A DNA stretch of 64,000 nt from Terracidiphilus sp. (GTDB taxonomy: Bacteria; Acidobacteriota; Terriglobia; Terriglobales; Acidobacteriaceae). The first letter of the stretch is position 1. Every line of letters starts with the position of its first letter. The notes beneath the pieces were generated by a model that ran no database searches, had not been told where the DNA came from, and worked only from the letters and a program-made list of their open reading frames with translations. The DNA lies in contig DATJEO010000212.1 in assembly GCA_035496515.1 (NCBI GenBank), forward strand, positions 1,701-65,700, read 5' to 3'. The translations under genes and the position numbers were made by a program. Shown piece by piece: positions 45,190 through 62,545 of the stretch.

Positions 45190-45759
45190 CTATTTCCTGG
45201 AGCGTGCTTGAGACTTCTTGCGGGAGGGCTTCCGGCGAGTTGGGCGTGCAGATAAGGATGCAATCTGCTTCTCCAACTCGGCCAGGCGGTCTTTCAGGAC
45301 TCTTATCTCTCCAGAGCCGGTGCTGTTTGCAGCTGCTGGGGCGGGCACTGCAATTTCGTCGATATTGTTCATGGCCGGTGGGGTCGATTCAGATGCGTTC
45401 TGGAGAAAGTCGAACGGGTTTAGGGCCGGCGTGATCGCACGGTATGTGCTCTGATACAGATCCAGCATTGCTTTCATGTAGCGGAGAGCGCTCTCCTGGC
45501 TGGCGCGTCCTGAAGCGATCACCATCTGACGCAAGATATCTAGCGGAAAACTGGAATCAGGTGTTTTCGCACCCTCCGCAACGATCTGGGTCAGGATCAC
45601 GCGGGTGATGTCTTCTCCGGAAGCTGCATCAACAACGCGCACATCGAATCCACTTCTAACAAGACCGGCGACTTCCTCCAGATTGATGTATCTGCTATTG
45701 GTGGCGTCGTAGAGCCTTCGATTCTCGTATTTCTTGATCAGAACGGTTTTGGCTGGCAT
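45190..45759 (-). CDS. phaR: PHA synthesis regulator (DNA-binding)
   Basis: IKKYENRRLYDATNSRYINL...VVDAASGEDITRVILTQI, the PhaR N-terminal domain. Confidence 0.9.
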   Translation of the reverse strand: MPAKTVLIKKYENRRLYDATNSRYINLEEVAGLVRSGFDVRVVDAASGEDITRVILTQIVAEGAKTPDSSFPLDILRQMVIASGRASQESALRYMKAMLDLYQSTYRAITPALNPFDFLQNASESTPPAMNNIDEIAVPAPAAANSTGSGEIRVLKDRLAELEKQIASLSARPTRRKPSRKKSQARSRK

Positions 45760-45785
45760 GGGAGAGCTTCTCCACTATTATGCAC

Positions 45786-45813
45786 TTGACTTTTCGATCG
45801 AACAGAGTAGGAT
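45786..45813 (+). promoter_or_regulatory. Sigma70-like promoter for the phasin-like gene
   Basis: TTGACT-N16-TAGGAT just upstream of the palindromes. Confidence 0.45.
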
Positions 45814-45822
45814 TCTTGTCGC

Positions 45823-45857
45823 ATGCTGCATTGCAGCATTTCCTGCAGCATGCAGGA
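45823..45857. promoter_or_regulatory. Putative PhaR operator (two palindromes)
   Basis: ATGCTGCA-T-TGCAGCAT and TCCTGCA-GCA-TGCAGGA between divergent phaR and the phasin-like gene; the first contains CTGC-N3-GCAG. Confidence 0.7.
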
Positions 45858-45864
45858 GGGTAGA

Positions 45865-46443
45865 ATGAGCCCCGCAGGGAAACCAAATCGCGAAGCAGCA
45901 ATGGACGAAATGATGGACAAAGCTGATTTCCGGAACGAGACCGCAGCGGTCTTGTTTCATGGCGTAGAGCGCATTGCCGAGGTCGAGAAGCAGTTCATTG
46001 ACCTTGCATTGGAGCACAACAAGGAGATGGGCGAGTTGCTGAAGAAGGCTGCAGCCACGCTGCCAGGCAGCCCCCGTATTCCAATGTTTGACCTGGCTTA
46101 CAGCGCCTTCAATCGTTACGCGGATGTACAGAAGGCCGCTGTGGACTTCATCGTGGATCAGAACCGAATCTGGCTGGATGTTTTCAAGGACAGGCCGGGC
46201 ACCGCAAAGAAGGCCGGCGAATCAGCCTCGCATGCGGTGAAGCAGGCGATGGAGAGCTCCTTTGCCGTGCAAAAGAAGGCACTCGAACACACCGCGGCAC
46301 ACACGAAGGCGGTGGTGGATGCTACCCGGAACCAGTTCGGAATCTCAGGAACCCAGGCCGATGCAATGACAGATAGCTTCAGGCGCGGAGTCGACACGAT
46401 CGTTGAGGCTCAGAAGGAACTGCTCAATATTGTGACTCACTAA
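45865..46443 (+). CDS. Putative phasin (PHA granule-associated protein)
   Basis: AGGAGG RBS; Ala/Lys/Glu-rich helical protein with 4 internal repeats; lies between phaR and the synthase genes. Function inferred from context. Confidence 0.6.
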   Translation: MSPAGKPNREAAMDEMMDKADFRNETAAVLFHGVERIAEVEKQFIDLALEHNKEMGELLKKAAATLPGSPRIPMFDLAYSAFNRYADVQKAAVDFIVDQNRIWLDVFKDRPGTAKKAGESASHAVKQAMESSFAVQKKALEHTAAHTKAVVDATRNQFGISGTQADAMTDSFRRGVDTIVEAQKELLNIVTH

Positions 46444-46569
46444 AGACGAGGGCGCGCTTTTTCGACCGGCCAAAGCGTGTTCCCGGCTCGACCTGCTTTG
46501 AATTAGTTGTCGGCCGTCACAGCGCGCCACGGCGAAAAAGGGGTATATATCTGCCCGCGGGGTAATCGT

Positions 46570-46974
46570 ATGCCAGAACAAGTTGGTGAACAGGCAAAGC
46601 CGTTCGATCCATTTGAGTCCATAAGGGGTATGCGGGACGCATATCTTGAGTCAATCTCCAAGACAATGGTTGAGGCAGTTAACTCCGAGAGCTATGCTCA
46701 GGCAACTGGAGCCATGCTGGATTATGCACTGAGCGCCTCAGCCCCATTCCGCGAGGCTCTGGAAAGGTCGATGGCCCAGACGCTGCAGCAACTCTCTCTG
46801 CCGTCAAGGCAGGATGTGGCGGCGTTGGCTGAGCGGTTCACCAACGTCGAGATGCGCCTTGACGATCTGGATGCAAAGATCGACCGGGTTCTTCAGGGGA
46901 TGGCGAAAGCGGCGCCCCCGCGGAATGGCAAGCGTCAGACAAGGCCTCGGAAGGCGGCAGCCAAACGAGCCTAG
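46570..46974 (+). CDS. phaE: Short PHA synthase partner subunit (PhaE / class IV PhaR-like)
   Basis: FDPF...SESYAQATG...LQQLSLPSRQDVAALAERFTNVEMRLDDL; directly upstream of a small PhaC. Confidence 0.7.
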   Translation: MPEQVGEQAKPFDPFESIRGMRDAYLESISKTMVEAVNSESYAQATGAMLDYALSASAPFREALERSMAQTLQQLSLPSRQDVAALAERFTNVEMRLDDLDAKIDRVLQGMAKAAPPRNGKRQTRPRKAAAKRA

Positions 46975-47050
46975 GCTGCGTTTGAACATTACTCAATCGA
47001 AAGCGTGGCGCCGCTCTGGCCATTGATAGCGATGAGAGGAAGTGATCCGT

Positions 47051-48118
47051 ATGCAGACGCCCGTGTCGGTAACGGAAGAGACACTCGCTTTTCAGAAGCG
47101 ATTGCGAACCTTCGTGAAGGTGCTCTCGACAAAAGCTGCAATCGCTCAGACTCCAAAAGAGCTGGTATGGACGCTCAACAAGACCAAGCTCTATCGCTAT
47201 GTTCCAGTTGTACCCGCCGAGAATCGTTTTCCGGTACCCCTGCTGCTGGTCTTTGCCATTATGAACCGGCCCTACATTCTCGATCTGCGGCCGGGTCATA
47301 GCTTTGTGGAGTTCATGATCCGCAGCGGTTTCGATGTTTATCTACTGGATTGGGGCCGCCCTGGGTTGGAAGACATGGGTACGAAACTGGACGACTATGC
47401 GATGGAATACCTTCCCCGGGCGATTCGCAAGGTAAAAGAAGTATCGGGATGCCAGGAATTCAGCATGCTCGGATGGTGTATCGGCGCCATTCTGACCACG
47501 ATCTACGCCGCAATAAGGCCGGATGATGGGCTTAGGAATCTGCTGCTGCTGACCGCGCCGCTCGACTTCTCCGATCGCAATCACGTGACCTTCGCGCGCT
47601 GGACAGACGAGCGATATTTCGATGTCGAGAAGATACTTGCGGCTTTCGGAAATATGCCGGGAGAGATGATCGACTATGGCGCGAGAGCGCTAAAGCCGGT
47701 CGATAACTACATCACTAATTACTACAAGCTATGGGACAACCTCGATAATCCGCGAGCTGTAGAAGCGTGGCATGCGATGAACACATGGGTCACTGACAAT
47801 ATCCCGATGGCCGGCGCCGCCTATCGACAGCTCATCGTTGAGCTATATCGCAAGAATGCATTGATGCAGAATCAATTGCGAATCAAGGATGAGTTGGTGG
47901 ACGTGAGCAATATTCGCGCTAACCTGTTGACAGTGATTGCGACTGGAGATCACATTACGCCGCCCTGTCAATCGGAAGCGATTCTCGGGAGAGTCTCCAG
48001 TACAGATAAGGAGACCTATCACATACCGGGCGGGCACATAGGCATCATGGCGGGAAGCAGTGCTCACCGGACGACCTGGCCTCACATTCAGGAGTGGCTC
48101 AGCGCAAGATCGCGCTGA
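47051..48118 (+). CDS. phaC: PHA synthase catalytic subunit, class III/IV size (~355 aa)
   Basis: QTPKELVW..NK.KLYRY, PLLLVFAIMNRPYILDL.PG.S, YLLDWG, lipase box GWCIG, GDHI, GGHIG. Start 47051 or 47042. Confidence 0.93.
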   Translation: MQTPVSVTEETLAFQKRLRTFVKVLSTKAAIAQTPKELVWTLNKTKLYRYVPVVPAENRFPVPLLLVFAIMNRPYILDLRPGHSFVEFMIRSGFDVYLLDWGRPGLEDMGTKLDDYAMEYLPRAIRKVKEVSGCQEFSMLGWCIGAILTTIYAAIRPDDGLRNLLLLTAPLDFSDRNHVTFARWTDERYFDVEKILAAFGNMPGEMIDYGARALKPVDNYITNYYKLWDNLDNPRAVEAWHAMNTWVTDNIPMAGAAYRQLIVELYRKNALMQNQLRIKDELVDVSNIRANLLTVIATGDHITPPCQSEAILGRVSSTDKETYHIPGGHIGIMAGSSAHRTTWPHIQEWLSARSR

Positions 48119-48138
48119 GCCTTACTCCTTACATACGA

Positions 48139-48924
48139 TCACATGTAAATGCCGCCGTTCACATTGATCTGCTGCCCGGTGATATAGTCGCCATTGCAAA
48201 TCAGGAAAGCTGCCGCCTTTGCGATCTCTTCCGGCCTGGCAAGCCTCTTCAGAGGGATTCTTGCTTTGATCTGCTCGAGGATCTCAGGAGGAATGGCGCC
48301 GACCATCTCTGTTTCGGTAAACCCCGGAGCTATGACATTGGCCGTGATATTGTACTTGGCCAGTTCCAGCGCCAGGACCTTGGTCATGGCGATGATGCCG
48401 CCTTTGCTTGCGGCATAGTTTGCCTGGCCGAAGTTCCCCGCCTGTCCTACGAATGAAGCGATGTTCACGATTCTGCCGTACCTCTGCTCGATCATTGCCG
48501 GAAGAGCGGCATTTGTGCAGTAGAAGACACTGTTGAGGTTGGTGTTGATCACCTCCAACCATTCTTCGTCGCTCATTTTGGCAATCGAATGATCGCGCGT
48601 AATGCCTGCGTTGTTTACCAGGATATCGAGCCGATGAAAACATTCCTGCACAACGGTGATGAGTTTCCGGGCCTGCTGACGGTCGGATACGTCTTCCTGG
48701 AAAACTTCACAGTCGCACCCCAACTGATGCACCTCATCCCTGAGGGTCTCAGCTGCGCTCCTCCTCGCCTTGAAGTTGATCGCTACCGAGGCGCCGAGGT
48801 GTGCCAGTTCCAGCGCAATCGCCCGGCCTATTCCTCGGGATGCACCTGTAATTAGAGCAATTTTGCCCTCGAGAGGACGTTCGATTGAGATACCCCTCTC
48901 TGGATGAACTGCAATGGTAGTCAT
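48139..48924 (-). CDS. phaB: Acetoacetyl-CoA reductase
   Basis: TGASRGIG, NNAGITRD, GQAGNFGQANYAASKGG, IAPGFTETEMV, YITGQQINVNGGIYM; follows the thiolase. Confidence 0.88.
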   Translation of the reverse strand: MTTIAVHPERGISIERPLEGKIALITGASRGIGRAIALELAHLGASVAINFKARRSAAETLRDEVHQLGCDCEVFQEDVSDRQQARKLITVVQECFHRLDILVNNAGITRDHSIAKMSDEEWLEVINTNLNSVFYCTNAALPAMIEQRYGRIVNIASFVGQAGNFGQANYAASKGGIIAMTKVLALELAKYNITANVIAPGFTETEMVGAIPPEILEQIKARIPLKRLARPEEIAKAAAFLICNGDYITGQQINVNGGIYM

Positions 48925-48938
48925 GTTGAACTCCCTTT

Positions 48939-50123
48939 CTACTTCAGCGATTCGAAGATTGCAGCGATACCCTGTCCGCCCCCAATGCACATGCTCACCA
49001 GCGCGTAGCGGCCGCCAATCCGACGCAGCTCGTGTATTGCCTTCACCGTCAGGATGGCACCGGTTGCTCCGATGGGATGGCCAAGAGAAATGCCGCTGCC
49101 ATTCGGGTTGGTTCTATCCAATGGCAGATCGAGTTCTCGCTGGACAGCAAGGAATTGGGAAGCGAAGGCCTCGTTCAGTTCAATCACGTCCATGTCTTTT
49201 GTGGTCAGCCCAGTGCGCTTGTAAACTTTCTCGACTGCTGGTATCGGACCCATGCCCATAACGCGAGGTTCGACGCCCGCAACCGCATAGCCGACCAGGC
49301 GTGCAATAGGCCGGAGCTCCGCACTCGCAAATTCCTCTTCTGCCAGCACCACGGCCGCGGCACCATCGTTGATGCTCGAGGCATTCCCTGGTGTAACTGT
49401 GCCTTCCGGATCGAATGCCGGTCTGAGTTTCGCAAGAGATTCGATCGTTGCATCGGCACGCGGAGACTCGTCAGTGACAAACTGAACAGTACCGGTTTTG
49501 CTTTTGAGTTCAACAGGTATGACTTGATCTCGGAAGCGGTTTTCCTGAATGGCGGCAAGAGCTCGGCGATGACTTTCCACTGCCCATTGATCCTGATCTT
49601 CACGCGAAATCTTCCACTCGCGTGCGATGTTCTCGGCAGTAGCGCCCATGTGGGTTTTCGAAAATGGGTCGGTAATGGCGGAAACGAGCGTGTCGATGGC
49701 GTTCACGTCATTAAGACGAGATCCCCAGCGGAGTGACTGCAGCCAATATGGAGCGCGGCTCATGGATTCGACACCGCCCGCTACAGCGGCATCGCAATCT
49801 CCGCTATATATCGATTCGGCTGCGGTAAGAATCGCCTGAAGACCGCTGCCGCAGAGCTTGTTGATCGTGAGAGCAGGTGTTTTAACAGGAAGTCCACCCT
49901 TCACGGCAGCTACTCGCGACAAGTACATGTCAGCCGGCTCGGTGTGAATGACGCTGCCAAAAACGACATTTCCGATCATCTCGGAAGATATTTTGGACCG
50001 CTGTAAAGACTGGCAAACTGATTTAGCCGCCAATTCGGTGGGGGGAATATCTTTTAGCGCACCTCCAAATTTCCCGATGGCTGTGCGGACAGCACTTAGT
50101 ACAACAACTTGCCGAGCACTCAT
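48939..50123 (-). CDS. phaA: Beta-ketothiolase (PhaA/BktB-like)
   Basis: [54 protein letters not shown]. Confidence 0.93.
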
Positions 50124-50533: not shown

Positions 50534-52144
50534 TTAGTGCGAGATCAGCCCCGAGTTGCGAAGAATCCGGCGTACTTTCTTAGGCGAGATTGAGAGAGTT
50601 GTGGCCACGCGCGATATCCTCCGATCCGATCGCAGCCACACCTTTGGAATTACGATTTCCGCAAACTCTTCTGTGATCTGCTGGAATGTCTTGTCGCCCA
50701 CAATGCCTTCGGACCAGCATCGAAGCGTGTCGTTAATCCCCGATGCTTTGACGATTCGCGACTTGAGCACGGCCAGATCTTCCAGGATGTGATCACTTTC
50801 TCCGGGTCCGATCAGAGCAGTTGCTTCAGACGCGAATCTGCGGGCACTTTCCCAGTCCTCGAAGAAATCATTCGCCGCGGTCATGCCGCGAGCAATTGCG
50901 GCGCCGGCGAGTAGCCGTTGATTCTGAGTCTCGTGAGCAAGGCTCAATGCCTCTTCGCTGTACTGACGTGCTCGATTCGCATGAACGGCAACGTCAGTGT
51001 CTTCTCCCGTCTGCTCCTCTACATGAGCGTTTTCGATGGCGGCCGCCAGTATTCGGGCTCGCGCCATCAGAATATGATCGTTCTGCCTGCGACCGATCTG
51101 GTATGCCTGACAGGCCTCGTCCTCCGCGCTCTCGATGTCGCCGCGATCCAGGTGAACATAGCCAAGATTTGAGAGCACCTTACCTATGCCGTCGAAATCA
51201 TCATGCAGAACATAGATCGCATGAGCCCGGGTTAAGGCATCCACGGCGCTTCGCCATGTTGTTTGATATTTGGTGAGGACTGTTTCGCGCGGCTCGGCCG
51301 ATGGGCGTGCTCGATTCGATCGAGATGCACTTTGGACCCTATCGATCCGCTTCCTCAACTGCAATGCCAGCAGGCGCTGAGCATAGCCGATGTTCACGAG
51401 AGTACGAGCAACATTCACATGATTGGGATCGCGGCGAGAGTAGATTTCGAGAGCACGCTCATAGTGTTCCAGAGCCTTTGAGTATTCGCCGGACCGCCGC
51501 ACGATTCGGCCCCGGGCAGACTCTATGTTTCCTAAGGCAACATAGTGGTCCGTCAACTTCAGCACGGATTCAGCACGGTCTAGGAGTTGAAGAGCCTCTT
51601 TAGACAGCCCTTTCTGGAACTGCAGCCAGCTCTCCTGTATCTGTACTACGGCCGCGAAGAATCCATCGTGGTTCGCCTCGGCAATTTCACGGGCCCTGAC
51701 GATATGCTTCAGGGCGGTCCCGTACTCCCCCTTTTTCCGGTGAGCGCGCCCTTTCCAGAAGTGAGCTACCGCTTCCTGCGATGTGCCCGGAAGCTCGCTA
51801 TAGGCGGTGAGCACCAGCTCGAGCTTGCTAATTGCGGCGTGGGGGCGATTCGCCGCAAGATCACGGAACGACTCTGCCATGCGAACTGACAGGTAATCCT
51901 CAATCGGGAGAATACGACGGCCGGATGCCGGAAATTTTTCCAGCATTGAATCGAGAATGCGGTAATCGCGATACCCTGCGTCAACCCATTGAGCAAACAG
52001 AAGCAGCAGCGCCGGACCGCCTGGAGTGTTCAGATCGACTTTGCCGATGTCGCTGTCAACCAGGGCAAGGATCTGAAAGCCTTTCTCAAGATTGCGTTGA
52101 GCTAGAGCCGCCGCCAATCCCTCTGCAAGCTGTGGATCAACCAT
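50534..52144 (-). CDS. TPR-repeat protein with C-terminal Fis-like HTH (putative regulator)
   Basis: TPR-like units ([24 protein letters not shown]...[28 protein letters not shown]); C-terminus [13 protein letters not shown]...[19 protein letters not shown]; AAGGAG RBS. Confidence 0.72.
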
Positions 52145-52347: not shown

Positions 52348-52360
52348 GCTGCAGTGCAGC
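52348..52360. promoter_or_regulatory. Putative PhaR-type operator upstream of aceA
   Basis: GCTGCA-G-TGCAGC, about 30 nt before the aceA ATG. Confidence 0.6.
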
Positions 52361-52389: not shown

Positions 52390-53697
52390 ATGGCTAAGCC
52401 GATAAAGAACGGACCCGTTGCGGAGAGATGGAGCAGGATCGCGAGGACTTACACAACAGAAGACGTAAGCCGATTGCGCGGCACAGTTCAGATCGAGTAC
52501 TCGCTGGCTCGGGCGGGAGCCGAGAAACTCTGGAACCTTCTCCACCGCGATGACTACGTTCCCGCTCTTGGTGCGCTTACGGGAAACCAGGCGGTGGAAA
52601 TGGCAGCAGCAGGATTGAAGGCCATTTACCTCAGCGGCTGGCAGGTTGCGGCAGACTCCAATCTGGCTGGTCAGATGTATCCGGATCAGAGCCTTTACCC
52701 GGTTAACAGCGTTCCGGCGCTTGTTCGCGGCATCAACAATGCTCTGATCCGCGCCGATCAGATTGCCCACTCGGAAGGCCGTCCGGCTTTCGACTGGATG
52801 CTGCCGATCGTCGCCGACGCTGAAGCGGGGTTCGGTGGGGTTCTGAACGCATACGAATTGACGAAGAGCATGATTGAAGCAGGTGCTGCTGCAGTGCACT
52901 TCGAAGACCAGCTCTCTTCGGCCAAGAAGTGCGGCCATATGGGCGGCAAGGTTCTTGTGCCCGTGCAGGAAGCGATTCAGAAACTGACGGCCGCCCGCCT
53001 CGCCGCTGATGTACTCGGCGTGCCTACGATCCTAGTAGCTCGTACCGATGCCGATGCTGCGCAGCTGATCACGAGTGATTGCGATGCGGTAGACCGTCCT
53101 TTCCTTACGGGAAGGCGAACCGTGGAGGGATTCTTCTCGTTTCGCGGAGGACTGGATGCGGCCATTGCCCGGGGGTTGGCATACGCTCCGTTTGCCGACA
53201 TCATCTGGTGCGAAACTTCCGAGCCGAATCTCCCCGACGCTCAGCGATTTGCCAAGGCGATCCATTCTGAGTTCCCGGGCAAACTGCTGGCATACAACTG
53301 CTCGCCTTCCTTCAATTGGAAGAGCAAGCTCAGCCTCAATGAACTAGCCACTTTTCAGCAAAGGCTCGGCGAAATGGGCTATCGCTTTCAATTCGTAACC
53401 CTGGCAGGCTTCCACGCGCTGAACCTGTCCATGTTTGAGCTCGCACACGAATACAGCCGCACCGGCATGCTCGCCTATTCGCAACTGCAGCAGCGCGAAT
53501 TCTCGGTGGCAGAGAAGTACGGTTATGGAGCTGTGAAGCACCAGCGCTTCGTTGGAACGGGGTATTTCGATCAGATCGCTACTGTCATTTCAAGCGGCAA
53601 CACCTCGACGCGTGCCCTGCCTGGATCCACAGAAGAAGAGCAGTTCGAGGATCCCTACGACCACGAGGTACCTGACCAGCAACGCGCAACCGCTTAG
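52390..53697 (+). CDS. aceA: Isocitrate lyase
   Basis: [59 protein letters not shown]; ATG 52390 after GAGGAG. Confidence 0.97.
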
Positions 53698-53736
53698 CTT
53701 TTCAACCCAGCGCAAATCTTTCGAAGAGGAAACTGA

Positions 53737-55326
53737 ATGACGACGAGCACTTCAATTCCGGAGCTGATGATCCCTGAGTTCGGGTCATCGCGACAACTTC
53801 TCACGCCTGAAGCCGTACAGTTTCTCAAGGCACTGCACGCACATTTCAACAGCAGGCGTGTAGCTCTTCTTGAGGCGCGGCGACAGCGCCAGGATGGCTA
53901 TGATCGCGGCGCCCTGCCCCACTTTCTTGAGGAAACCAAACACATCCGCAACAGCGATTGGCGAGTGGCGGCTCCGCCCCAAGAACTCCTCGATCGCCGC
54001 GTCGAGATCACGGGACCGCCAGAACGCAAGATGATCATTAACGCTCTGAACTCAGGGGCTCGCGTCTTCATGGCCGACTTTGAAGATTCGAACTCACCCA
54101 CATGGAAGAATTGCATGTGCGGACAAAGGAACTTGATCGACGCCAATCTACGGACGATCACGTTCTCTTCCGGCGATGGTCGTCAGTATGAATTGAAGCC
54201 CGATCCGGCCGTTCTCTTCGTACGGCCTCGCGGCTGGCACCTGCTTGAAAAGCACTTCTGGGGGAATGGCTCTCCGATTTCAGCTTCACTGTTCGACTTC
54301 GGACTCTATCTGTTCCACAATTGCAGGATCCTGCTCGATCGCGGTTCGGCCCCATACTTTTATCTTCCGAAACTGGAGAGCCACCTTGAAGCCCGGCTGT
54401 GGAACGACGTGTTCGTCTTTTCGCAGCGCTACCTCGGAGTACCCGTCGGAACCATACGGGCGACGGTGCTGATTGAGACCATCTCCGCCGCTTTTGAGAT
54501 GGATGAGATTCTTTACGAGTTGCGCGATCATTCCGCGGGGCTCAATTGCGGCCGCTGGGATTACATATTCAGCTTCATCAAGAAGTTCAGGAACAGGCCT
54601 GACTGCGTATTGCCGCAGCGCGGCGACATCACGATGGAACAGCCCTTCCTTCGTTCTTACGTTGATCTGCTCATCCATACCTGCCACAAACGCGGCATTC
54701 ACGCTATGGGAGGAATGGCCGCGCAGATCCCAATTCGCGATGATCCAAAAGCCAATGAGGAGGCGATGCAGCGGGTCAGAGAAGACAAGCTGCGCGAGGC
54801 ACGCGCCGGGCACGACGGCACATGGGTTGCGCATCCGGGCCTGGTCCCAATCGCAATGTCAGTTTTCGATGAGCACATGCCTGCGGAGAATCAGATCAGA
54901 ACGCCCGCTGAATCTCACCTGCCCGTTAACGCGGATAATCTGCTCGAGGTCCCGTCGGGCCGCCTCACGGAAGCGGGTTTGAAGCGCAACATCGACGTAG
55001 GACTTCGCTATATCGAATCATGGCTTCGCGGTAATGGTTGCGTTCCGATCTACAACCTGATGGAGGACGCCGCGACCGCTGAGATATGCCGCGCACAATT
55101 GTGGCAATGGGTGCGCTATGGCGCCCAGCTGGAAGACGGACGCTCGATTTCGCGAGAACTGCACGATGAGATGCTCGGCGAGATTGTTGATGGCCTGCGA
55201 TCGTCCATGGGCAATGAGGCCTACTCAACCACGAAATTTGATCGAGCAAGTGAGTTCATGAGGAAGCTGACCCAGGGAGAATTCGAGGAGTTTCTGACGA
55301 CAGCGGCTTATGGCGAGTTAACTTAA
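53737..55326 (+). CDS. aceB: Malate synthase A
   Basis: DRRVEITGP, MADFEDS, VRPRGWHL, YFYLPKLE, GLNCGRWDYIFS, GGMAAQIP, GHDGTWVAHP, LMEDAATAEI. Confidence 0.97.
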   Translation: MTTSTSIPELMIPEFGSSRQLLTPEAVQFLKALHAHFNSRRVALLEARRQRQDGYDRGALPHFLEETKHIRNSDWRVAAPPQELLDRRVEITGPPERKMIINALNSGARVFMADFEDSNSPTWKNCMCGQRNLIDANLRTITFSSGDGRQYELKPDPAVLFVRPRGWHLLEKHFWGNGSPISASLFDFGLYLFHNCRILLDRGSAPYFYLPKLESHLEARLWNDVFVFSQRYLGVPVGTIRATVLIETISAAFEMDEILYELRDHSAGLNCGRWDYIFSFIKKFRNRPDCVLPQRGDITMEQPFLRSYVDLLIHTCHKRGIHAMGGMAAQIPIRDDPKANEEAMQRVREDKLREARAGHDGTWVAHPGLVPIAMSVFDEHMPAENQIRTPAESHLPVNADNLLEVPSGRLTEAGLKRNIDVGLRYIESWLRGNGCVPIYNLMEDAATAEICRAQLWQWVRYGAQLEDGRSISRELHDEMLGEIVDGLRSSMGNEAYSTTKFDRASEFMRKLTQGEFEEFLTTAAYGELT

Positions 55327-55462: not shown

Positions 55463-55495
55463 ACTGCAATGCAGCAAATCCCGCTGCACTGCAAT
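55463..55495. promoter_or_regulatory. Tandem putative PhaR-type operators upstream of the SDR
   Basis: ACTGCA-A-TGCAGC (55463-55475) and GCTGCA-C-TGCAAT (55483-55495). Confidence 0.55.
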
Positions 55496-55523: not shown

Positions 55524-56390
55524 ATGCAAACAACTGCAATTACGGAACGGAAAGCTATCGAATCGCCCTTCACCCTTGAAGGCAAAACGGCCATTGTGAC
55601 CGGCTCCGGACGCGGCATAGGCCGTGCAATCGCCAAGCGGCTCGTCGCGGCCGGCGCTTGTGTAATGCTCAACGACCTCGACGAGAAGATGTTGCACGAA
55701 TCGAAGGAATCGCTTCCCGATCCCGAGCGGGTTGACGTGATCGCGGGTGATCTTACAGATCCTTCGGTTCCCGGCAGGATCGTCGAGGCCACCCTGGACA
55801 CTTTCAAGGCGGTGGACATCATCGTCAACAATGCGGGCTATAGCTGGGACAATGTCATTCAAAAGACTACTGACGAGCAGTTCCAGGCGATGCTTGATAT
55901 TCACCTCGTCACGCCATTTCGGCTGCTACGAGCGGCCTCCACGTACCTCAGAGAAACAGCAAAGCATGAGATTGCCAGCGGGCAGTGCGTCATGCGCAAG
56001 GTCGTCAACATCACTTCTATTTCGGGAACCGACGGCAATCCCGGACAGATCGGCTACTCTGCAGGAAAGGCCGGCGTCATTGGCCTGACCAGAACGCTTG
56101 CCAAAGAGTGGGGCAGGTTTAACGTAAACGTGAATGCGGTTGGGTTTGGGCTTATCGAGACCCGGCTTGTCCAGCCGCTGGATGCGGAAGGCGCATCGAT
56201 GGAGATGCATGGGCATCAGATCCGCCTCGGAGTGCAGAAGAGCCTGCTCGAATCCGTTAAAAGCGCGTGCCCGCTGGGTCGCCTGGGAACGCCGGACGAT
56301 GCTGCGAAGACGGTGCTTTTCTTCTGTTCACCGCTCTCAGACTACGTGACCGGCGAGGTGCTGATCTGCAGCGGCGGGCTCCACTTTTGA
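55524..56390 (+). CDS. SDR, 3-oxoacyl-CoA/ACP reductase-like
   Basis: TGSGRGIG, VNNAGYSWD, GNPGQIGYSAGKAG, LAKEWG, PLGRLGTP. Confidence 0.9.
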   Translation: MQTTAITERKAIESPFTLEGKTAIVTGSGRGIGRAIAKRLVAAGACVMLNDLDEKMLHESKESLPDPERVDVIAGDLTDPSVPGRIVEATLDTFKAVDIIVNNAGYSWDNVIQKTTDEQFQAMLDIHLVTPFRLLRAASTYLRETAKHEIASGQCVMRKVVNITSISGTDGNPGQIGYSAGKAGVIGLTRTLAKEWGRFNVNVNAVGFGLIETRLVQPLDAEGASMEMHGHQIRLGVQKSLLESVKSACPLGRLGTPDDAAKTVLFFCSPLSDYVTGEVLICSGGLHF

Positions 56391-56594
56391 GACAGCTTTC
56401 TTGAAACCATCAACCGCCTCAGCGAAGGGGGCCGTATCCGCCGGCGCAACCGCGTTTTCAGATTCGTTCAGCAGCTCACATAGTCGGGCCCAATGATCGA
56501 AGCTGAATTCTTCACCGCAATCAAGAGACTTTGTGGGTGTTTCATAGCGCGAATTGTTCGGGGCATTCCGATTCGATGTCATGACAATTGGCAT
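56337..56594 (-). CDS. Small hypothetical protein A (GEEFS-H-CEL motif)
   Basis: GGAGGAGG RBS; shares a 19-aa motif with 56918-57127; tail overlaps the SDR 3' end by 54 nt. Confidence 0.7.
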   Translation of the reverse strand: MPIVMTSNRNAPNNSRYETPTKSLDCGEEFSFDHWARLCELLNESENAVAPADTAPFAEAVDGFKKAVSKVEPAAADQHLAGHVV

Positions 56595-56917
56595 CGTTCC
56601 TCCTCCGATATTGGAGACGACTTCTGTGCGTCCGTGCGGCTGAGCTTAGCATAGTGTCCGATCACAAGATCTGAACCGCTCTGGAGTTGGGCTGCGGCGG
56701 ACGCCAGTCCGATTCTCCCTCACCTGCGCGCTGCCCATGCCGAATGGAGATGCTGATGCACGCGCTCGCGCTTGATCGTCGCTAATTGGCGTAGCTTTCC
56801 TAGGGTATTTCCTAGTTACGGACGTACAGAACGCGAGCCTAAGATCAAGGGCCTGATCCAGAAATTCAGGTTTTCGGCCGATCCGGAACAGATATCAAGA
56901 CTCGTTCGGAGGTGCCT

Positions 56918-57127
56918 ATGTCATCCGTTCTTCTCGATCCCATAACTCAGGAAAAGAAAGATGTGAGCGAGTGCTCCCCCACGAGTGCCCAGCCGCATCC
57001 CGCTTCCTATGACTCAGGCGAGGAGTTCAGCCTGGCTCATTTTGTACATGACTGCGAACTCATTGAACAGGAAGACCAGACTTCCGACAGATCGGTACTT
57101 GAGGACGAGTACCTACCCGTCGCGTGA
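56918..57127 (+). CDS. Small acidic hypothetical protein B (GEEFS-H-CEL motif)
   Basis: GGAGG RBS 5 nt before ATG 56918; shares the motif with 56337-56594. Confidence 0.72.
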   Translation: MSSVLLDPITQEKKDVSECSPTSAQPHPASYDSGEEFSLAHFVHDCELIEQEDQTSDRSVLEDEYLPVA

Positions 57128-57358: not shown

Positions 57359-60300
57359 CTACTTCAGACCATAACTGAATGGGATGGTTGTGCCATCGTT
57401 CAGTGTAATCAAGAAGGAGTAGGTCCGATTGGCTCCCGATAGACCCTTGTTGTCGATGTTGAAGATCCATTGTTGAGCAGTTGGATCCCAACGGAATGCA
57501 GCGTCCGGCGTTGTGGAATCGACGGTTTCGTTAACCGTGTTCGTCGTCGTACCATTGAACACCTGGTACAGAACGAACTTCGACACCACCCCGGGATTCC
57601 CAATTGAGACCCCATTGGCATCGCACACCCGGAACTTCGCCGGTGACGTGCTCTTTGCGTTGAACACGCTGGTTCCGTTGACATTGATCGGTTGTAGAAT
57701 CTGATGGCCCGCGTCGCCATAACAAACTCCGCCGCTCAAATAGCTCACGCTAAGTGTTCCAGGATTGTAGTTGATGCTGTAGTTCGCGGAAGTTTGCCCG
57801 GTACAACTAATCGGGAAACTCCCAATCGTCTTACCGTTGGTTGTTGTCGAACAATTCAAAGACCCGCCCAGAACACCGGACAGCTCGCCGTTCACGAATC
57901 CGGCATAGGTTACAGTGAACGAAGGTAGGGCCGCACCGAGAATCATAGATTTGTTGTCTGCAGTGATATTCAGAATCGCCTTGCCGATCTCATCGCTTAC
58001 GGTTCCCGCGGTGTTGTTGTAGTTTCCCGTCGCATCAGTGAACGTCCAGCTATCGGTGTAGCTGTTTGCATTCGTGTGCGCGCTGCCGCTCAAGTCCAGT
58101 CCACCGAGGATCTCGCCCTTCACACCCTTGGCAGATCCCGTGGCCATATGCAACTTGCCGTCATAGGTCACGTTGTAGGGCGTCACGTTCACGACTGCAT
58201 TGGCTTTGCCGATCACGTCGTTCACGGTTCCGCTCGCGCCTTTGTAGTTTCCGGTCGAGTCGGTAAACGTCCATGAATCGCTATAGGTGCTTGCATTGGT
58301 ATGCGTGGTCCCGCTCAGGTCAAGTCCGCTGAGGCTCTCGCCTTTCGCACCCGTCACCGAGCCCACTGCGGTATGCGCATTTCCGTCGTACGTTACGCTG
58401 TACGCCGTCACAGTGACATTTGCATCCGCCTTGCCGATCTGGTCATGCACCGTGCCGCCCGCTGTGTTGTAGTTGGCGTCGCCTGCGAAGCTCCAGGCGT
58501 CGGCAGCGAAATCTCCCGCGTTTGTGTGAGTCGTGCCGCTCAGAGTCAACAACCCGCTCAGATCCTCGTTCTTAACGCCGGTTGCAGTGCCTGCGGCTGT
58601 GTGTGCATTGCCGTCGTAGGTCACGTTATATGGGGTGACGTTTACGATGGCATCTGCCTTGCTGATGACATCGTACGCACTTCCACTTGCGCTGTTGTAG
58701 TTCCCTGTCGAGTCGGTGAAGGTCCACGAATCGGTGTAGTGATTCGCATTTGTGTGAGTAGTTCCCGCCAGGTCCAGCCCACTGAGATTCTCGTTCTTCA
58801 CCCCAACGGCGGTACCGCTTGCGGTATGCGCATTGCCATCGTAGGTGACACTGTACGGAGTCACAGTTATGGTTGCACTGGCCTTACCAATGACATCGTT
58901 AACCGTTCCGCTCGCATTGTTGTAATTCCCTGTTGAGTCGGTGAACGTCCAGCTATCGTTGTAGGAGTTCGCATTTGTGTGTGTGGTTCCGCTCAGGTCG
59001 AGGCTAAAGCTCTCTCCCTTTACACCAGTCGCTGTACCAGTTGCGGTGTGCGGGTTTCCGTCATAGGTGACACTGTAGGGATTGACCGTGATAATGGCAT
59101 CCGCCTTGCTGATGCGATCGTGCACGGTGCCGCTGCCCGGGTTGTAGTTGTTGTTCCCAGCAAAGCTCCAGGCGTCAGTCGGAAAATCACCAGCATCAGT
59201 GTGCGTTGTTCCTGTCAGCGTCAGCAGACTGGCAAGATCCTCACCCTTCACACCCGTAGCCGTGCCTGGTGCGATGTGCGCATTGCCATCATAGGTAACG
59301 GTGTAAGGAGTGATGCTGAGATTTGCATTAGCCTTGTTGATGACATCGGTGATGATGGTAGCCGGAATGTCGTTGTAATTGGCGGTGCCTGTGAATGCCC
59401 ATGTATCGGCGGAGTACGTTCCGGCGTTGGTGTGCGTGGTGTTGCTCACGTCCACGCTGCCTACTGTGCCTCCTGTCTCCCCGTTCACACCGGTAATCGA
59501 TTTTGCAACTGCGCTGTGCGGATCCCCGTCATATGTCAGCGCGTAGGGCGTAACGACTACGCTTGCCGTGGCCTTCGCAATTGTGTCAGTAATCGTTGTT
59601 GCACCGATATCGTTATAGTTGGCTGTTCCGGTAAAGGTCCAGGTGTCGCTGTTGTACGTGCCGGCGCCGACATGTGCAGTGTGGCTGAGATCGACAGTGC
59701 CGACTGTAGCGCCTGTCTCGCCGTTCACGCCGCTGATCGTCACGGCCGCCGTGTGGGATTGTCCGTCGTAAGTAAGCGAGTAAGGTGTAACAACAATCGC
59801 CGCATTCGCCTTGTTGATGGTGTCAGTGATAGTCGTAGCGCTGATGTCGCTGTAATTCACCGAGCCGGCAAAACTCCAATAATCGGTCGAATAGGTGCTC
59901 GCGCCCGAATGCGTCGTATGGCTCACGTCCACGGTGCCTACCGTATTGCCGCTCTCACCGTTGACGCCGCTGATTGTAGTCACCGATGCTGTGTGTGCCT
60001 GGCCATCGTAGGTCACGCTATAGGGAGTAACTACGATCGTCGCACTCGCCTTGCTGATGTCGTTGTTGACTGTTCCGCTGGCGTCTGCATAGTTTCCGCT
60101 CGGATCATGGAAGCTCCATGAGTCATTCGCATAAGTTCCAGCATTGGTATGGGTCGTGCCGCTCAGGTTGAATCCAGAGCTCAAATCTACATTCCCCAAG
60201 CCCTTTGCCGTCCCAACCGCAGTGTGGGCGATCCCATCGTACGTCACGCTGTATGGGGTGACTGAGAGCGTGGCGGTTGCCTTCGTTATATCCGCGCTCG

Positions 60301-62545
60301 CTGTGGCGGGCTTCGAGCTTACGCTGGTACCCGCCGCGCCCAGAGTGTAGTTCCCGACTGCATCGCCGCTGATTGACAACGTTGCCGATACCGTTATGCC
60401 ACTGCCGGCATTCGCGTTTGCGAAGCTGCCGTTCGTCGCTGTGCAAGCGACCTTGCTCGAGTCCGCGGGTAGCACGCCACTCAGAGAGCAGCTCATATTT
60501 GCATTGGGTTCCGTTGCATTCCCATCGTAGGTTTTGTTGCCTGCTGTCAGGGCCGCAATGAGTGGTGCAGTATTCACAATTAGAGTGCCGGAGTTGTCGT
60601 TACTTCCGCTGAAGTTCCCCGTTGGCGAATAAGTTGCCGTCAGGCTGTAAGCGACAGTGCTGGCCGATGGGTAAATGATCGTGCATGTTGAAGCCGAAGT
60701 CGTCGAGGTTGCAGCGGCAAGAGATGTACACGTTGCAGAACCGCCGTTGCTCACAGTCATCGCTACACTGCCCGTGGGAGATCCCGATCCTGACGTGTTC
60801 GTCACCGTCACGGTAGATGTGGCTGTTTGGCCATAGGTGACTATCGCTGAGCTCTCCTTTGTCTGCGTCGTAGAACTCACGAAACTGACGGTCAGGCTGC
60901 CGTCCTTGTTTCCAAACGGACCGACCGAGCAGGTAGTCGAACCAGAGGCGCAGCCCACCTTAGTCCACTGCTGTGGTGCGCCGCTCCAGTTGGCGCCGGG
61001 CATCGCGGTGAATGTGATGGTGATGCCGTTCGCAGGCGAAAAGGAGCAACCACTGCCTGAGGCTGTTGTGCCATTCCATGTGCAAGTGCTCGAGTCCAGG
61101 CTGTTCGATACGATGCCCGGATTGCTTCCACTGAAGAGGAGCGACATGTTGATCGTCGAGGCATCCGTAAAGATTGTCTGTGCCTGGAAGCCCGAACTGC
61201 CGCCCACCGCCGTAAGGTGATATCGGGCGCCGAGATCGGACGGGGTTGGCGCATAGTCCGAGAGGGCGAAACTTCCCTTTCCATCCGCCGTCACTGTGTA
61301 GTCAGGTGGATCCACCAGCATCTGGTTCACCCACTCGCGCAGGTACAATTTCACGGTCTCGCCGGGCTGGAACCCGAGTCCAGTCATCACAACGGGAGTG
61401 CCGGGCGCGTAGTCTGGCTGGTCCGTCGAAATGGTCGGGAACCAATAAACCTCGGCTGCGCCAGCGGAAGATCCTGTCCCGCCTGCCGCAAGCAATGTGC
61501 CAATTGTCACAGGAGAGACGAATCCGCCAGAGTGATCCACGCCTGACGCTGCTCCTGAAATGAAAGCTCCCGCAATGTTGTTACCCCACGGCTGAAGCAG
61601 ATCGACTGCGGTTCCCCCGGTGCCACCCATGGCCAGAATGCTTCCATTCTTCGGCAGAAGAGCCGCGATATGGCCACTTCTTGGAGTTGCCCCATTCACG
61701 AGGCGGAACGCATTTGTCCACTGGCTGAATATCTCTGCTGAGCCAAGGTCTACAGTGCCGTTTGTGCCGCCAATGATAGCTACGCCATCGTAGGTCGTCG
61801 TCGCGCTTGCATTTGTGCGCGGATATGTCATGTTCGGGCCAGCAGCAACTGCGCCCTCCATGGTATCCGGGCTGTAGGTGAACACTTCCGTGGAACTGAG
61901 CACGGCACCATTGATGTCCATGCCTCCCGCGACTAACACCCGACCATCGGGAGTAGAAGCAGCAGCAGCATTGGTTCGAGGAGTCATCAGCGTGCCGATC
62001 GGCATGACAGACCCATCCGCAGTCTTGAACAGCAACAAATTGCCGACGGGACCGGTCGTGCTTTCGCCTCCGACAATCAGCACGTTGCCATCGGACAATA
62101 TCGCCATCGCATGTTTTGCGAGACCCGCACCAAGCGACGCCTGCAGAACCGTCCACGTGCCGTTCTGCGAGTCGAAGATCTCAGCTGTGTCGCTATATCC
62201 TCCTCCCGTCGTCAGACCGCCCGTGACCAGCACATCCCCAGTATTCAGGACAATTGCCGCGTGATTCGCACGGGCTACGCTCATCTGGGATGCAACAGAG
62301 AATCCACCTGTAGCAGGATCGAAAATCTCGGTGGAGGCTTGCGGCACGCCGTTGCCGTCACTGCCACCTGTGATCAAAACCCTCCCCCCCGGAAGGAGCA
62401 CCGCAGCCGCTCCGGTCCGTGTTTGCGCCATGGGGCCCACCGAGGACCATGTGTTCGAAGTTTGTGAGTGTCCGCTCTCAGTTGGAAGCAGGAAGGAGAG
62501 GAACAGGAGAGACACAACAGCCAGGAACTTTCGAAACGTGCGCAT
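57359..62545 (-). CDS. Large secreted surface protein: Kelch propeller, Ig-like, YDG/MBG-like repeats, C-terminal PxKF-like domain
   Basis: Signal peptide; Kelch units (GRVLITGG, STEIFDP); TD.PDYAPG; NKTYDG; 10 tandem repeats; ITADNKS...LPSFTVTYAGFVNG; SPAKFRVCDANG. Confidence 0.88.
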   Translation of the reverse strand: MRTFRKFLAVVSLLFLSFLLPTESGHSQTSNTWSSVGPMAQTRTGAAAVLLPGGRVLITGGSDGNGVPQASTEIFDPATGGFSVASQMSVARANHAAIVLNTGDVLVTGGLTTGGGYSDTAEIFDSQNGTWTVLQASLGAGLAKHAMAILSDGNVLIVGGESTTGPVGNLLLFKTADGSVMPIGTLMTPRTNAAAASTPDGRVLVAGGMDINGAVLSSTEVFTYSPDTMEGAVAAGPNMTYPRTNASATTTYDGVAIIGGTNGTVDLGSAEIFSQWTNAFRLVNGATPRSGHIAALLPKNGSILAMGGTGGTAVDLLQPWGNNIAGAFISGAASGVDHSGGFVSPVTIGTLLAAGGTGSSAGAAEVYWFPTISTDQPDYAPGTPVVMTGLGFQPGETVKLYLREWVNQMLVDPPDYTVTADGKGSFALSDYAPTPSDLGARYHLTAVGGSSGFQAQTIFTDASTINMSLLFSGSNPGIVSNSLDSSTCTWNGTTASGSGCSFSPANGITITFTAMPGANWSGAPQQWTKVGCASGSTTCSVGPFGNKDGSLTVSFVSSTTQTKESSAIVTYGQTATSTVTVTNTSGSGSPTGSVAMTVSNGGSATCTSLAAATSTTSASTCTIIYPSASTVAYSLTATYSPTGNFSGSNDNSGTLIVNTAPLIAALTAGNKTYDGNATEPNANMSCSLSGVLPADSSKVACTATNGSFANANAGSGITVSATLSISGDAVGNYTLGAAGTSVSSKPATASADITKATATLSVTPYSVTYDGIAHTAVGTAKGLGNVDLSSGFNLSGTTHTNAGTYANDSWSFHDPSGNYADASGTVNNDISKASATIVVTPYSVTYDGQAHTASVTTISGVNGESGNTVGTVDVSHTTHSGASTYSTDYWSFAGSVNYSDISATTITDTINKANAAIVVTPYSLTYDGQSHTAAVTISGVNGETGATVGTVDLSHTAHVGAGTYNSDTWTFTGTANYNDIGATTITDTIAKATASVVVTPYALTYDGDPHSAVAKSITGVNGETGGTVGSVDVSNTTHTNAGTYSADTWAFTGTANYNDIPATIITDVINKANANLSITPYTVTYDGNAHIAPGTATGVKGEDLASLLTLTGTTHTDAGDFPTDAWSFAGNNNYNPGSGTVHDRISKADAIITVNPYSVTYDGNPHTATGTATGVKGESFSLDLSGTTHTNANSYNDSWTFTDSTGNYNNASGTVNDVIGKASATITVTPYSVTYDGNAHTASGTAVGVKNENLSGLDLAGTTHTNANHYTDSWTFTDSTGNYNSASGSAYDVISKADAIVNVTPYNVTYDGNAHTAAGTATGVKNEDLSGLLTLSGTTHTNAGDFAADAWSFAGDANYNTAGGTVHDQIGKADANVTVTAYSVTYDGNAHTAVGSVTGAKGESLSGLDLSGTTHTNASTYSDSWTFTDSTGNYKGASGTVNDVIGKANAVVNVTPYNVTYDGKLHMATGSAKGVKGEILGGLDLSGSAHTNANSYTDSWTFTDATGNYNNTAGTVSDEIGKAILNITADNKSMILGAALPSFTVTYAGFVNGELSGVLGGSLNCSTTTNGKTIGSFPISCTGQTSANYSINYNPGTLSVSYLSGGVCYGDAGHQILQPINVNGTSVFNAKSTSPAKFRVCDANGVSIGNPGVVSKFVLYQVFNGTTTNTVNETVDSTTPDAAFRWDPTAQQWIFNIDNKGLSGANRTYSFLITLNDGTTIPFSYGLK
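57983..60283 (-). repeat. Ten tandem ~75-80-aa intragenic repeats
   Basis: Consensus KAxAxxxVTPYxVTYDGxAHTA...SGTTHTNAxxY.DxWxF..GNY...GTVxDxI, counted in the translation. Confidence 0.9.

Follow-up and report, generated by a model that had tools for sequence, protein, structure and literature searches.

A 64,000-nucleotide stretch of DNA from Terracidiphilus sp. (GenBank assembly GCA_035496515.1, contig DATJEO010000212.1, positions 1,701–65,700; the whole stretch is called the window below) carries two small genes, A and B, that lie head to head beside a gene for a short-chain dehydrogenase/reductase (SDR), which follows the glyoxylate-shunt genes aceA and aceB and a polyhydroxyalkanoate (PHA) cluster (Table 1). 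An earlier note, made from the letters of the window alone, had described the pair as two open reading frames (ORFs) with strong ribosome-binding sites and a shared motif; the coordinates proved correct, and a GGAGG ribosome site was found ahead of each gene. Recounting of the shared 19-residue blocks (56472–56528 in A, 57005–57061 in B) again gave 11 identical residues, 8 of them specified by different synonymous codons, with a nucleotide identity of 33/57, and the best ungapped 19-mer match never exceeded 8 in 300 trials in which both proteins were shuffled. The final 54 nt of A run antisense to the end of the SDR gene (its 3' part), and because of this overlap the C-terminal tail of A is probably a read-through product that followed the loss of a stop codon. 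Metatranscriptome contigs covered both genes (an exact one of 195 nt on A and its leader; on B, an exact one of 151 nt and one of 245 nt that shows 12 differences), and we do not count them as support for expression, since the three metatranscriptomes, from three studies, were retrieved using this very stretch, had a depth below 5 and unknown strand, and in one run also contained exact contigs elsewhere in the window.

Table 1 Features of the window around the small genes A and B
Feature	Position	Strand	Remarks
Small gene A	56337..56594	-	85 aa; convergent on the SDR gene
Conserved 26-residue core of A	56463..56540	-	
Ribosome-binding site of A	56599..56606	-	GGAGGAGG
Small gene B	56918..57127	+	ATG start, 69 aa; divergent paralogue of A; C-terminal Val-Ala
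Conserved 26-residue core of B	56993..57070	+	
Ribosome-binding site of B	56908..56914	+	GGAGGTG
Degenerate box remnant	56654..56665		Spacer of 4, one mismatch; probably non-working
NAD-type SDR	55524..56390	+	TGxGxGIG, Asp51 ending strand 2, NNAG, YxxxK; predicted target
Paired TGCA-x-TGCA operator before SDR	55465..55493		Putative PhaR site
aceA and aceB (glyoxylate shunt)	52393..55326	+	Upstream of SDR, same strand
TPR protein with C-terminal HTH-like end	50534..52144	-	Divergent from aceA; context, not partner
PHA cluster	45190..50123		phaR, phasin-like gene, phaE, class III phaC, phaB, BktB-type thiolase

Sequence comparison revealed that A and B are paralogues in an unnamed family of proteins of about 60 residues that share a 26-residue core. 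A profile search of 1.84 billion representatives returned 332 clusters at 50% identity, and the 148 newly listed proteins among them, on which the conservation percentages are based, have a median length of 63.5 aa. Their core reads P-x3-S-[YF]-D-S-G-x-E-[HCF]-S-[LV]-[ED]-H-[WL]-x-[ED]-[VL]-x2-[LM]-V-E, with P conserved in 91%, S in 96%, D in 99%, E in 100%, S in 98%, H in 96% and V in 91%, whereas the flanks are free. The motif of the earlier note thus stood as a short conserved core in otherwise variable small proteins, whereas its closing CEL turned out to be a local feature, the Cys being present in 3% of members. B retains the consensus P, S, Y, D, G, E, S and H; in A, Leu replaces Tyr at motif position 6 and Arg replaces Glu at position 19. 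Codon-position entropies over 70 cores were 0.83, 0.57 and 1.45 bits for the first, second and third positions, the third being the most variable (three of the 26 core columns were fixed beforehand by the selection pattern), which bears out the earlier claim that selection acted on the peptide and that the block is not a DNA repeat.

Frame-preserving relatives, which the earlier note had proposed to look for, do exist. Among 60 genomes of relatives, four contained syntenic copies, one of them with the same head-to-head pair, and the window genome (G000; 75% complete) holds A and B as its only two copies. A profile search of 400 genomes drawn from the bacterial family gave 20 positives with 1–5 copies each, and a phylum-wide draw of 400 gave a single weak match (E 0.002, G571). 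When 185,579 species genomes were scanned with a strict pattern, 52 loci emerged, 51 titled Acidobacteriota and one titled uncultured bacterium; this is a lower bound, as the pattern would miss A and B themselves. All of the 52 titles except that of L206 are marked MAG. Judged by these sequence searches, the family is found in Acidobacteriota only. The locus sets from the different searches overlap and share descent, and the counts that follow are not independent.

The earlier statement that the motif belongs to no recognised family was borne out. Pfam and NCBIfam scans of 37 members gave no family (best E 0.008, in isolated members only), a PDB profile search gave no match at E values up to 10, and Foldseek gave none for the monomer model, no wider remote-fold search having been made. 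The ESM Atlas held nothing usable for B and only unnamed clusters at 0.89–0.90 for member P0179. The core profile found nothing significant among 2451 ORFs of the window genome, 16 pattern matches in viral contigs yielded no confirmed member, and no longer fused form appeared in a search restricted to 322–2000 aa, which is weak evidence. Members named in the sources are annotated as hypothetical protein only, and the open papers name no such family, a word search being unable to reach an unnamed family or the supplements. Resemblances of the core to acyl carrier protein helix II, zinc knuckles and EF hands were considered and set aside. Mimicry of the PhaR N-terminal domain or its hairpin-helix was rejected at an hhalign probability of 0.2%, as was membership of DUF2934, since PF11154 matches only a separate fused domain in P0074, P0099 and P0161 and not the motif.

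The AlphaFold2 monomer model consists of one helix behind a loop (pTM 0.38, pLDDT below 50 at the N-terminus), and according to this model the family proteins are small and mostly unstructured when alone. The earlier note had considered a D/E/E/H/C metal site. A stand-alone metal buffer or sensor made of Asp, Glu and His together with a His or Cys would agree with the 96–100% conservation of the first three and with the His or Cys at motif position 12 in 86% of members; however, this position is Phe in 11%, including both A and B, the family has no conserved Cys (the most frequent, at position 12, reaches 24%), the model shows a lone helix behind a loop, and the association with the SDR described below would be left unexplained. 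We regard the metal site as very unlikely. Apart from the core, a further short motif, F-D-D/E and then Cys or Leu, closes 19 of the 148 representatives (P0008–P0010, L041:7710-7907, L328 and others); it lies outside the stretch folded in the complex prediction described below. A degenerate small ORF with a strong ribosome-binding site directly behind phaR in another genome (L044:15096-15290, G022) has kept no more than the helix and the acidic motif at the C-terminus.

Comparison of the 52 genome loci revealed that an orthologue of the SDR adjoins the small gene at 42, in convergent orientation at 41 and within 360 nt at 39. phaC was present at 40 and phaR at 36 of the 52 loci, whereas the gene for the tetratricopeptide repeat (TPR) protein with a helix-turn-helix (HTH) end, which the earlier note had named, was present at only 8. 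The upstream neighbour is of at least five kinds (phaR, thiolase, phaC, aceB, TPR-HTH) while the SDR stays constant. Metagenomes gave a similar picture, with the SDR at 53 and the TPR-HTH gene at 1 of the best 80 of 145 loci. Proximity in this window is all that favours docking on the TPR-HTH protein, or a role in which the motif would form the core or the leader of a peptide that is modified; the TPR-HTH gene travels with aceAB, and no modifying enzyme of ribosomally synthesized, post-translationally modified peptides and no peptide exporter recurred among the mapped and Pfam-scanned neighbours, a subset of all neighbours. The distribution already largely refutes both ideas, to which we attach almost no credence. 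The docking-peptide option as such turned out to be the best reading of the motif, with the SDR, which the earlier note had not named, as the indicated partner. The TPR-HTH gene has no NCBIfam match, and related loci almost always show it in divergent orientation to aceA; its product is likely a regulator of aceAB.

The two genes also co-occur across genomes. In the draw of 400 genomes from the bacterial family, PhaR was matched in 136, the SDR orthologue in 26 and the small gene in 20; small gene and SDR were found together in 19, and one further SDR genome (G376) carries a frameshifted copy in the usual place facing the SDR (L222:7811-7987). Fourteen genomes of the same PhaR clade lack the SDR, and none of them contained the small gene (12 were re-searched with all candidates scored). 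The PhaR matches fall into two score groups, about 39 of the class III cassette type and about 97 of a distant PhaR, the latter with no phaC nearby in 20 loci sampled.

Complex prediction was performed with an SDR dimer and residues 14–52 of a small protein, both from the same relative locus (L041) and each with its alignment. The complex scored 0.81 (runs 0.81, 0.80 and 0.85) against at most 0.11 in three controls; the pertinent mark was attained by 116 of 157 solved complexes and by 2 of 215 mismatched pairs, counts that apply only roughly to this job. The runs agreed on at least 82% of contacts, and the partner pLDDT was at least 74. Unrelated 39-mers offered the same empty pocket scored 0.00, and the peptide on an unrelated protein scored 0.11. 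The predicted interface lies on one subunit and comprises SDR residues 17–25, 42–44, 68, 94–102, 117, 156, 169 and 199–204, which are the cofactor and catalytic motifs, including the catalytic S156 and Y169. All seven core columns that are at least 90% invariant fall within it.

In the model, the motif Tyr contacts T17, G18, D42, L43, L68, N94–Y97 and I117, and the Ser preceding it contacts G18, D42 and L43. The invariant Asp contacts G18, S19, I23, G24, D42, N94 and A95, and the residue at the H/C/F position contacts I23, F199 and A251. T17, D42 and N94 terminate strands 1, 2 and 4 of the SDR model, D42 being the last residue of strand 37–42. We take D42 to be the residue that grips the ribose of the adenosine and signals a preference for NAD, and L43, L68 and I117 to line the adenine pocket. 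The glycine loop of SDRs is described as the pyrophosphate site (PMC12822633). Because its contacts trace the SDR cofactor site, the modelled peptide looks like a stand-in for NAD in the pocket. The complex model supports binding and does not show it, and we consider it likely that the core binds the SDR. Memory of a similar solved complex in the prediction is less likely, since the peptide has no solved relative by sequence or fold. Leu43 is Leu in all 56 SDRs with a small gene and is changed in four of five without it, in two lineages. PhaB has Phe-Lys-Ala at the position of Asp-Leu-Asp in the SDR, and because the contacted Asp is thereby replaced, PhaB would be expected to escape the peptide.

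Analysis of the upstream regions revealed the palindrome GTGA-N6-TCAC (≤1 mismatch) ahead of 51 of 65 distinct small-gene copies, 28 of which were perfect, compared with 4.9 and 0.19 expected from 100 dinucleotide shuffles. It was rarer before SDR (11/68), phaR (7/98), phasin (1/75) and phaC (8/84) genes. A TAnnnT element follows 20–23 nt downstream of the box in 23 of 50 cases, whereas eight control windows gave 0–2; such spacing between a box and the -10 element is typical of a class II activated promoter. In the window genome, the 6-nt spacer gave 76 matches and other spacers 7–20. From 68 sites (among them C197:22852, C142:775, C98:2204, C282:9109 and C119:11080), 20 downstream genes were chosen by eye for Pfam analysis; this selected list includes a NiFe hydrogenase small subunit, HypC, CcmE, CcmF, two multiheme cytochromes, two Usp proteins and FeoA, as well as phosphoketolase, acetyl-CoA hydrolase/transferase, ATP synthase b, carboxyl transferase and two CRP-family regulators. 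The genome has three CRP-family genes; two of them encode an N-terminal Cys cluster (C-x2-C-x7-C), and both of these bear the box. Judging by these genes, the set behind GTGA-N6-TCAC looks like a low-oxygen regulon. In Bacillus and Paenibacillus, TGTGA-N6-TCACA serves as the Fnr box (10.1101/2020.01.03.894683). In our literature search, no paper was found on an FNR regulon of Acidobacteria. C-terminal Ala-Ala was found in 20 of 115 members and in 39 of 2451 genome ORFs, a tenfold difference; ClpXP degrons end in the same way.

The SDR itself is likely an NAD-dependent (R)-3-hydroxyacyl-CoA dehydrogenase (MFE-2 type). An Asp ends strand 2 in all 56 SDRs with a small gene, and Asp at this place marks NAD preference in SDRs. 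The best PDB sequence match is 2et6, a (3R)-hydroxyacyl-CoA dehydrogenase, and the SDR lies under the cut-off of every NCBIfam model shown. Relatives of about 50% identity occur on 69 plasmid records; six were opened, and the four that were annotated have acyl-CoA catabolic neighbours, namely MaoC-type/acyl dehydratases (in two), thiolase-like proteins, acyl-CoA dehydrogenase, CoA transferase and carboxyl transferase. Three or more TGCA elements are present in the leaders of 53 of 66 SDR, 28 of 73 phasin and 6 of 74 phaC genes, and the paired TGCA-x-TGCA of the SDR recurs in the window at 45824 (before the phasin/phaR pair) and at 52350 (before aceA). This distribution suggests that the paired operator is a PhaR site and that PhaR controls the glyoxylate shunt here; since the aceA operator is the same as that of the SDR and of phasin/phaR, the presence of granules would lift the repression of SDR and shunt at the same time. 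In native polyhydroxybutyrate (PHB) granules, an NAD+-dependent conversion of 3-hydroxybutyryl-CoA to acetyl-CoA has been described, and the same source calls the avoidance of simultaneous PHB synthesis and breakdown, a futile cycle, unsolved (PMC7147478).

A different role of the same enzyme has to be weighed at this point. The peptide may bind the NAD pocket of an SDR that works as an NADH-dependent acetoacetyl-CoA reductase feeding PHB synthesis, in which case it would throttle the reductase or park the apo-enzyme; the box may then respond to cAMP or to the carbon status in place of oxygen. The complex prediction and the synteny would be the same, the closest folds of the SDR are FabG reductases, all three CRP-family proteins examined have the CRP-type recognition helix RETV, and TGTGA-N6-TCACA is equally the CRP consensus. 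However, each cluster already contains PhaB, the SDR shares its operator with aceA, the box stands ahead of hydrogenase, HypC, CcmE/F, multiheme cytochrome and Usp genes, and the two Cys-cluster CRP-family genes bear it themselves. On balance, this reading appears unlikely.

We return to an oxidising SDR and propose, as somewhat more probable than its alternatives taken together, that the small proteins are inducible, short-lived inhibitors that fill the NAD site of the SDR, so that at low oxygen the oxidation of 3-hydroxybutyryl-CoA stops, NAD+ is spared and carbon stays in PHB. The SDR, under a PhaR-type operator like phasin and aceA, would oxidise 3-hydroxybutyryl-CoA derived from PHB, the product passing as acetyl-CoA into the glyoxylate shunt and biosynthesis. 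Most family members would be switched on at low oxygen by an FNR/CRP-type activator. In the NAD pocket, the core would place its Tyr at the adenine position, the preceding Ser on the ribose-holding Asp and the invariant Asp on the glycine-rich pyrophosphate loop, while the H/C/F residue and the helix would cover the nicotinamide and substrate side. Inhibition would shut an NADH-producing route, halt a futile cycle between PhaB and the SDR and retain carbon in PHB, and the Ala-rich C-termini would let a protease remove the inhibitor once oxygen returns. The fuller picture is more tentative, and we would put it a little below an even chance: the core as an encoded mimic of NAD that shuts a housekeeping SDR by competition, with Tyr standing for adenine and Ser/Asp for ribose and pyrophosphate, induced anaerobically, cleared through a C-terminal degron and so deciding which way the PHB cycle runs in Acidobacteria of soil and peat.

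Several observations weigh against this proposal. Regarding the structure, the prediction contained no NAD, which left the pocket vacant for the peptide, and it covered the SDR as the single candidate partner; the description of the tool gives a pass rate of 7 out of 44 for neighbours picked blindly. The folded pair is that of a relative, whose SDR is 85% identical to the SDR of the window and whose peptide is 33% identical to B and 28% to A, and both A and B diverge from the consensus helix. Six outgroup SDRs keep Leu43 as well, and in SDRs without the gene, changes are not enriched at the interface (5/39 versus 30/137 elsewhere). Regarding the enzyme, Foldseek ranks a FabG reductase first for the SDR, so that the direction proposed here is tentative; apart from a match on PhaC, no PF06850 PHB depolymerase was found in the 75%-complete genome, which leaves a gap in the proposed supply of 3-hydroxybutyryl-CoA. 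Regarding control, the A/B pair has no intact box, its best match having 3 mismatches beside the 4-spaced remnant at 56654, and because their own box has been lost, control of A and B may differ from that of other members.

Regarding the linkage, 6 of the 26 SDR-bearing genomes have no copy of the small gene, a 97%-complete genome in 810 contigs (G220) has a copy without an SDR orthologue or PhaR, and at one locus (L208) the copy is flanked by thiolase and phaC genes and no SDR is visible. In a quick PhaC tree of 67 rows (row L081 mislabelled, its SDR lying just beyond the stretch), the pattern comes down to two or three losses of both genes and two of the small gene only, and adjacent genes may be lost together without a functional link. 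Extra copies were found beside CRP/FNR, receiver-domain, ABM and cold-shock genes and also near cNMP, LexA and carboxyl transferase genes, and the motif is fused to DUF2934 at either end, to a receiver domain or in frame with a cold-shock domain (P0074, P0099, P0161, P0116, L294, L148/L163). Some of these fusions may be read-through; those to DUF2934 or a receiver domain are not needed by a pure SDR inhibitor. The function of DUF2934 is listed as unknown (PMC9100948).

An alternative is that the real partner is another protein, such as another Rossmann enzyme or an FNR/CRP or receiver regulator, the link to the SDR being an inherited cassette and the predicted complex a filling of the pocket. 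The neighbours of orphan copies (CRP/FNR, receiver and PocR-kinase genes), the receiver and DUF2934 fusions, G220, the few independent losses and the folding without NAD all favour such a partner. On the other hand, unrelated 39-mers scored 0.00 on the same pocket and the peptide scored 0.11 on an unrelated protein, four of five tested genomes with orphan copies also hold an SDR with an adjacent copy, and the orphans keep the core residues (Tyr 18/19, Asp 19/19). We give a different partner only a small chance, and continue with the SDR as the target.

By analogy, the family would work like CP12 and PirC while being a member of neither, as it has no profile match to either and no Cys pairs. 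CP12 of cyanobacteria and plastids is small, acidic and for the most part disordered; it becomes folded on GAPDH, a Rossmann-fold dehydrogenase, close to where the coenzyme binds and catalysis takes place, shuts the enzyme down under a redox cue, and needs and touches bound NAD(H) (PMC3838966). The family likewise consists of small, mostly disordered proteins, predicted to bind a Rossmann-fold dehydrogenase. In contrast to CP12, which binds beside NAD, the family peptide is predicted to replace the cofactor; its predicted target is an SDR, its control is apparently transcriptional and not disulfide-based, conserved Cys pairs are absent, and none of 37 members matched the CP12 Pfam model. The immunity proteins IFS, IFT and Tsi6 fill the NAD-binding pockets of toxic NADases; they are folded antitoxins of NAD-destroying toxins, whereas the family consists of short proteins predicted to sit on a housekeeping dehydrogenase. 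PirC of Synechocystis, freed from PII under nitrogen limitation, is a small inhibitor of phosphoglycerate mutase, and by inhibiting a central enzyme it shifts carbon between PHB and other sinks (PMC9049629), as is proposed for the family, which no Pfam or NCBIfam model matches. PhaM and phasins are likewise accessory proteins of PHA clusters (PMC9049629), but they are much larger, bind granules or DNA, and show no profile match to the family.

Fnr, Anr, CydR and FixK2 tune PHB with oxygen in Herbaspirillum, Pseudomonas, Azotobacter and Bradyrhizobium; as this source presents it, oxygen control is exerted on the transcription of pha genes and not via an inhibitor protein (PMC9049629). Here, by contrast, the box stands on the small gene, and control would pass through the inhibitor. 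Among the open papers searched, no small-protein inhibitor of an SDR cofactor pocket was found. A small-protein plug on a candidate enzyme of 3-hydroxybutyryl-CoA oxidation would offer a testable switch for the futile-cycle problem and a new regulatory layer in the carbon storage of an abundant, little-studied soil phylum. If the proposal is true, the core would also be a naturally occurring scaffold for peptides that inhibit dehydrogenases selectively, and PHA yield might be steered through it.

Two further genes were noted in passing. Just past B, a gene at 57359–62545 on the reverse strand encodes a secreted-type protein of 1728 aa that contains Kelch, YDG and MBG repeats and is not beside the family elsewhere in the loci examined. 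In PHA cassettes of relatives, an 892-aa fusion (L310:7356-10034, reverse strand) lies behind genes for a biotin carrier and a carboxyl transferase, with a similar layout in L284, L308, L309, L313 and L320; by eye, its N-terminal part is unknown and is joined to a FabH-like condensing domain and to a reductase of the PhaB type, and the fusion possibly provides a malonyl-CoA route to PHB monomers.

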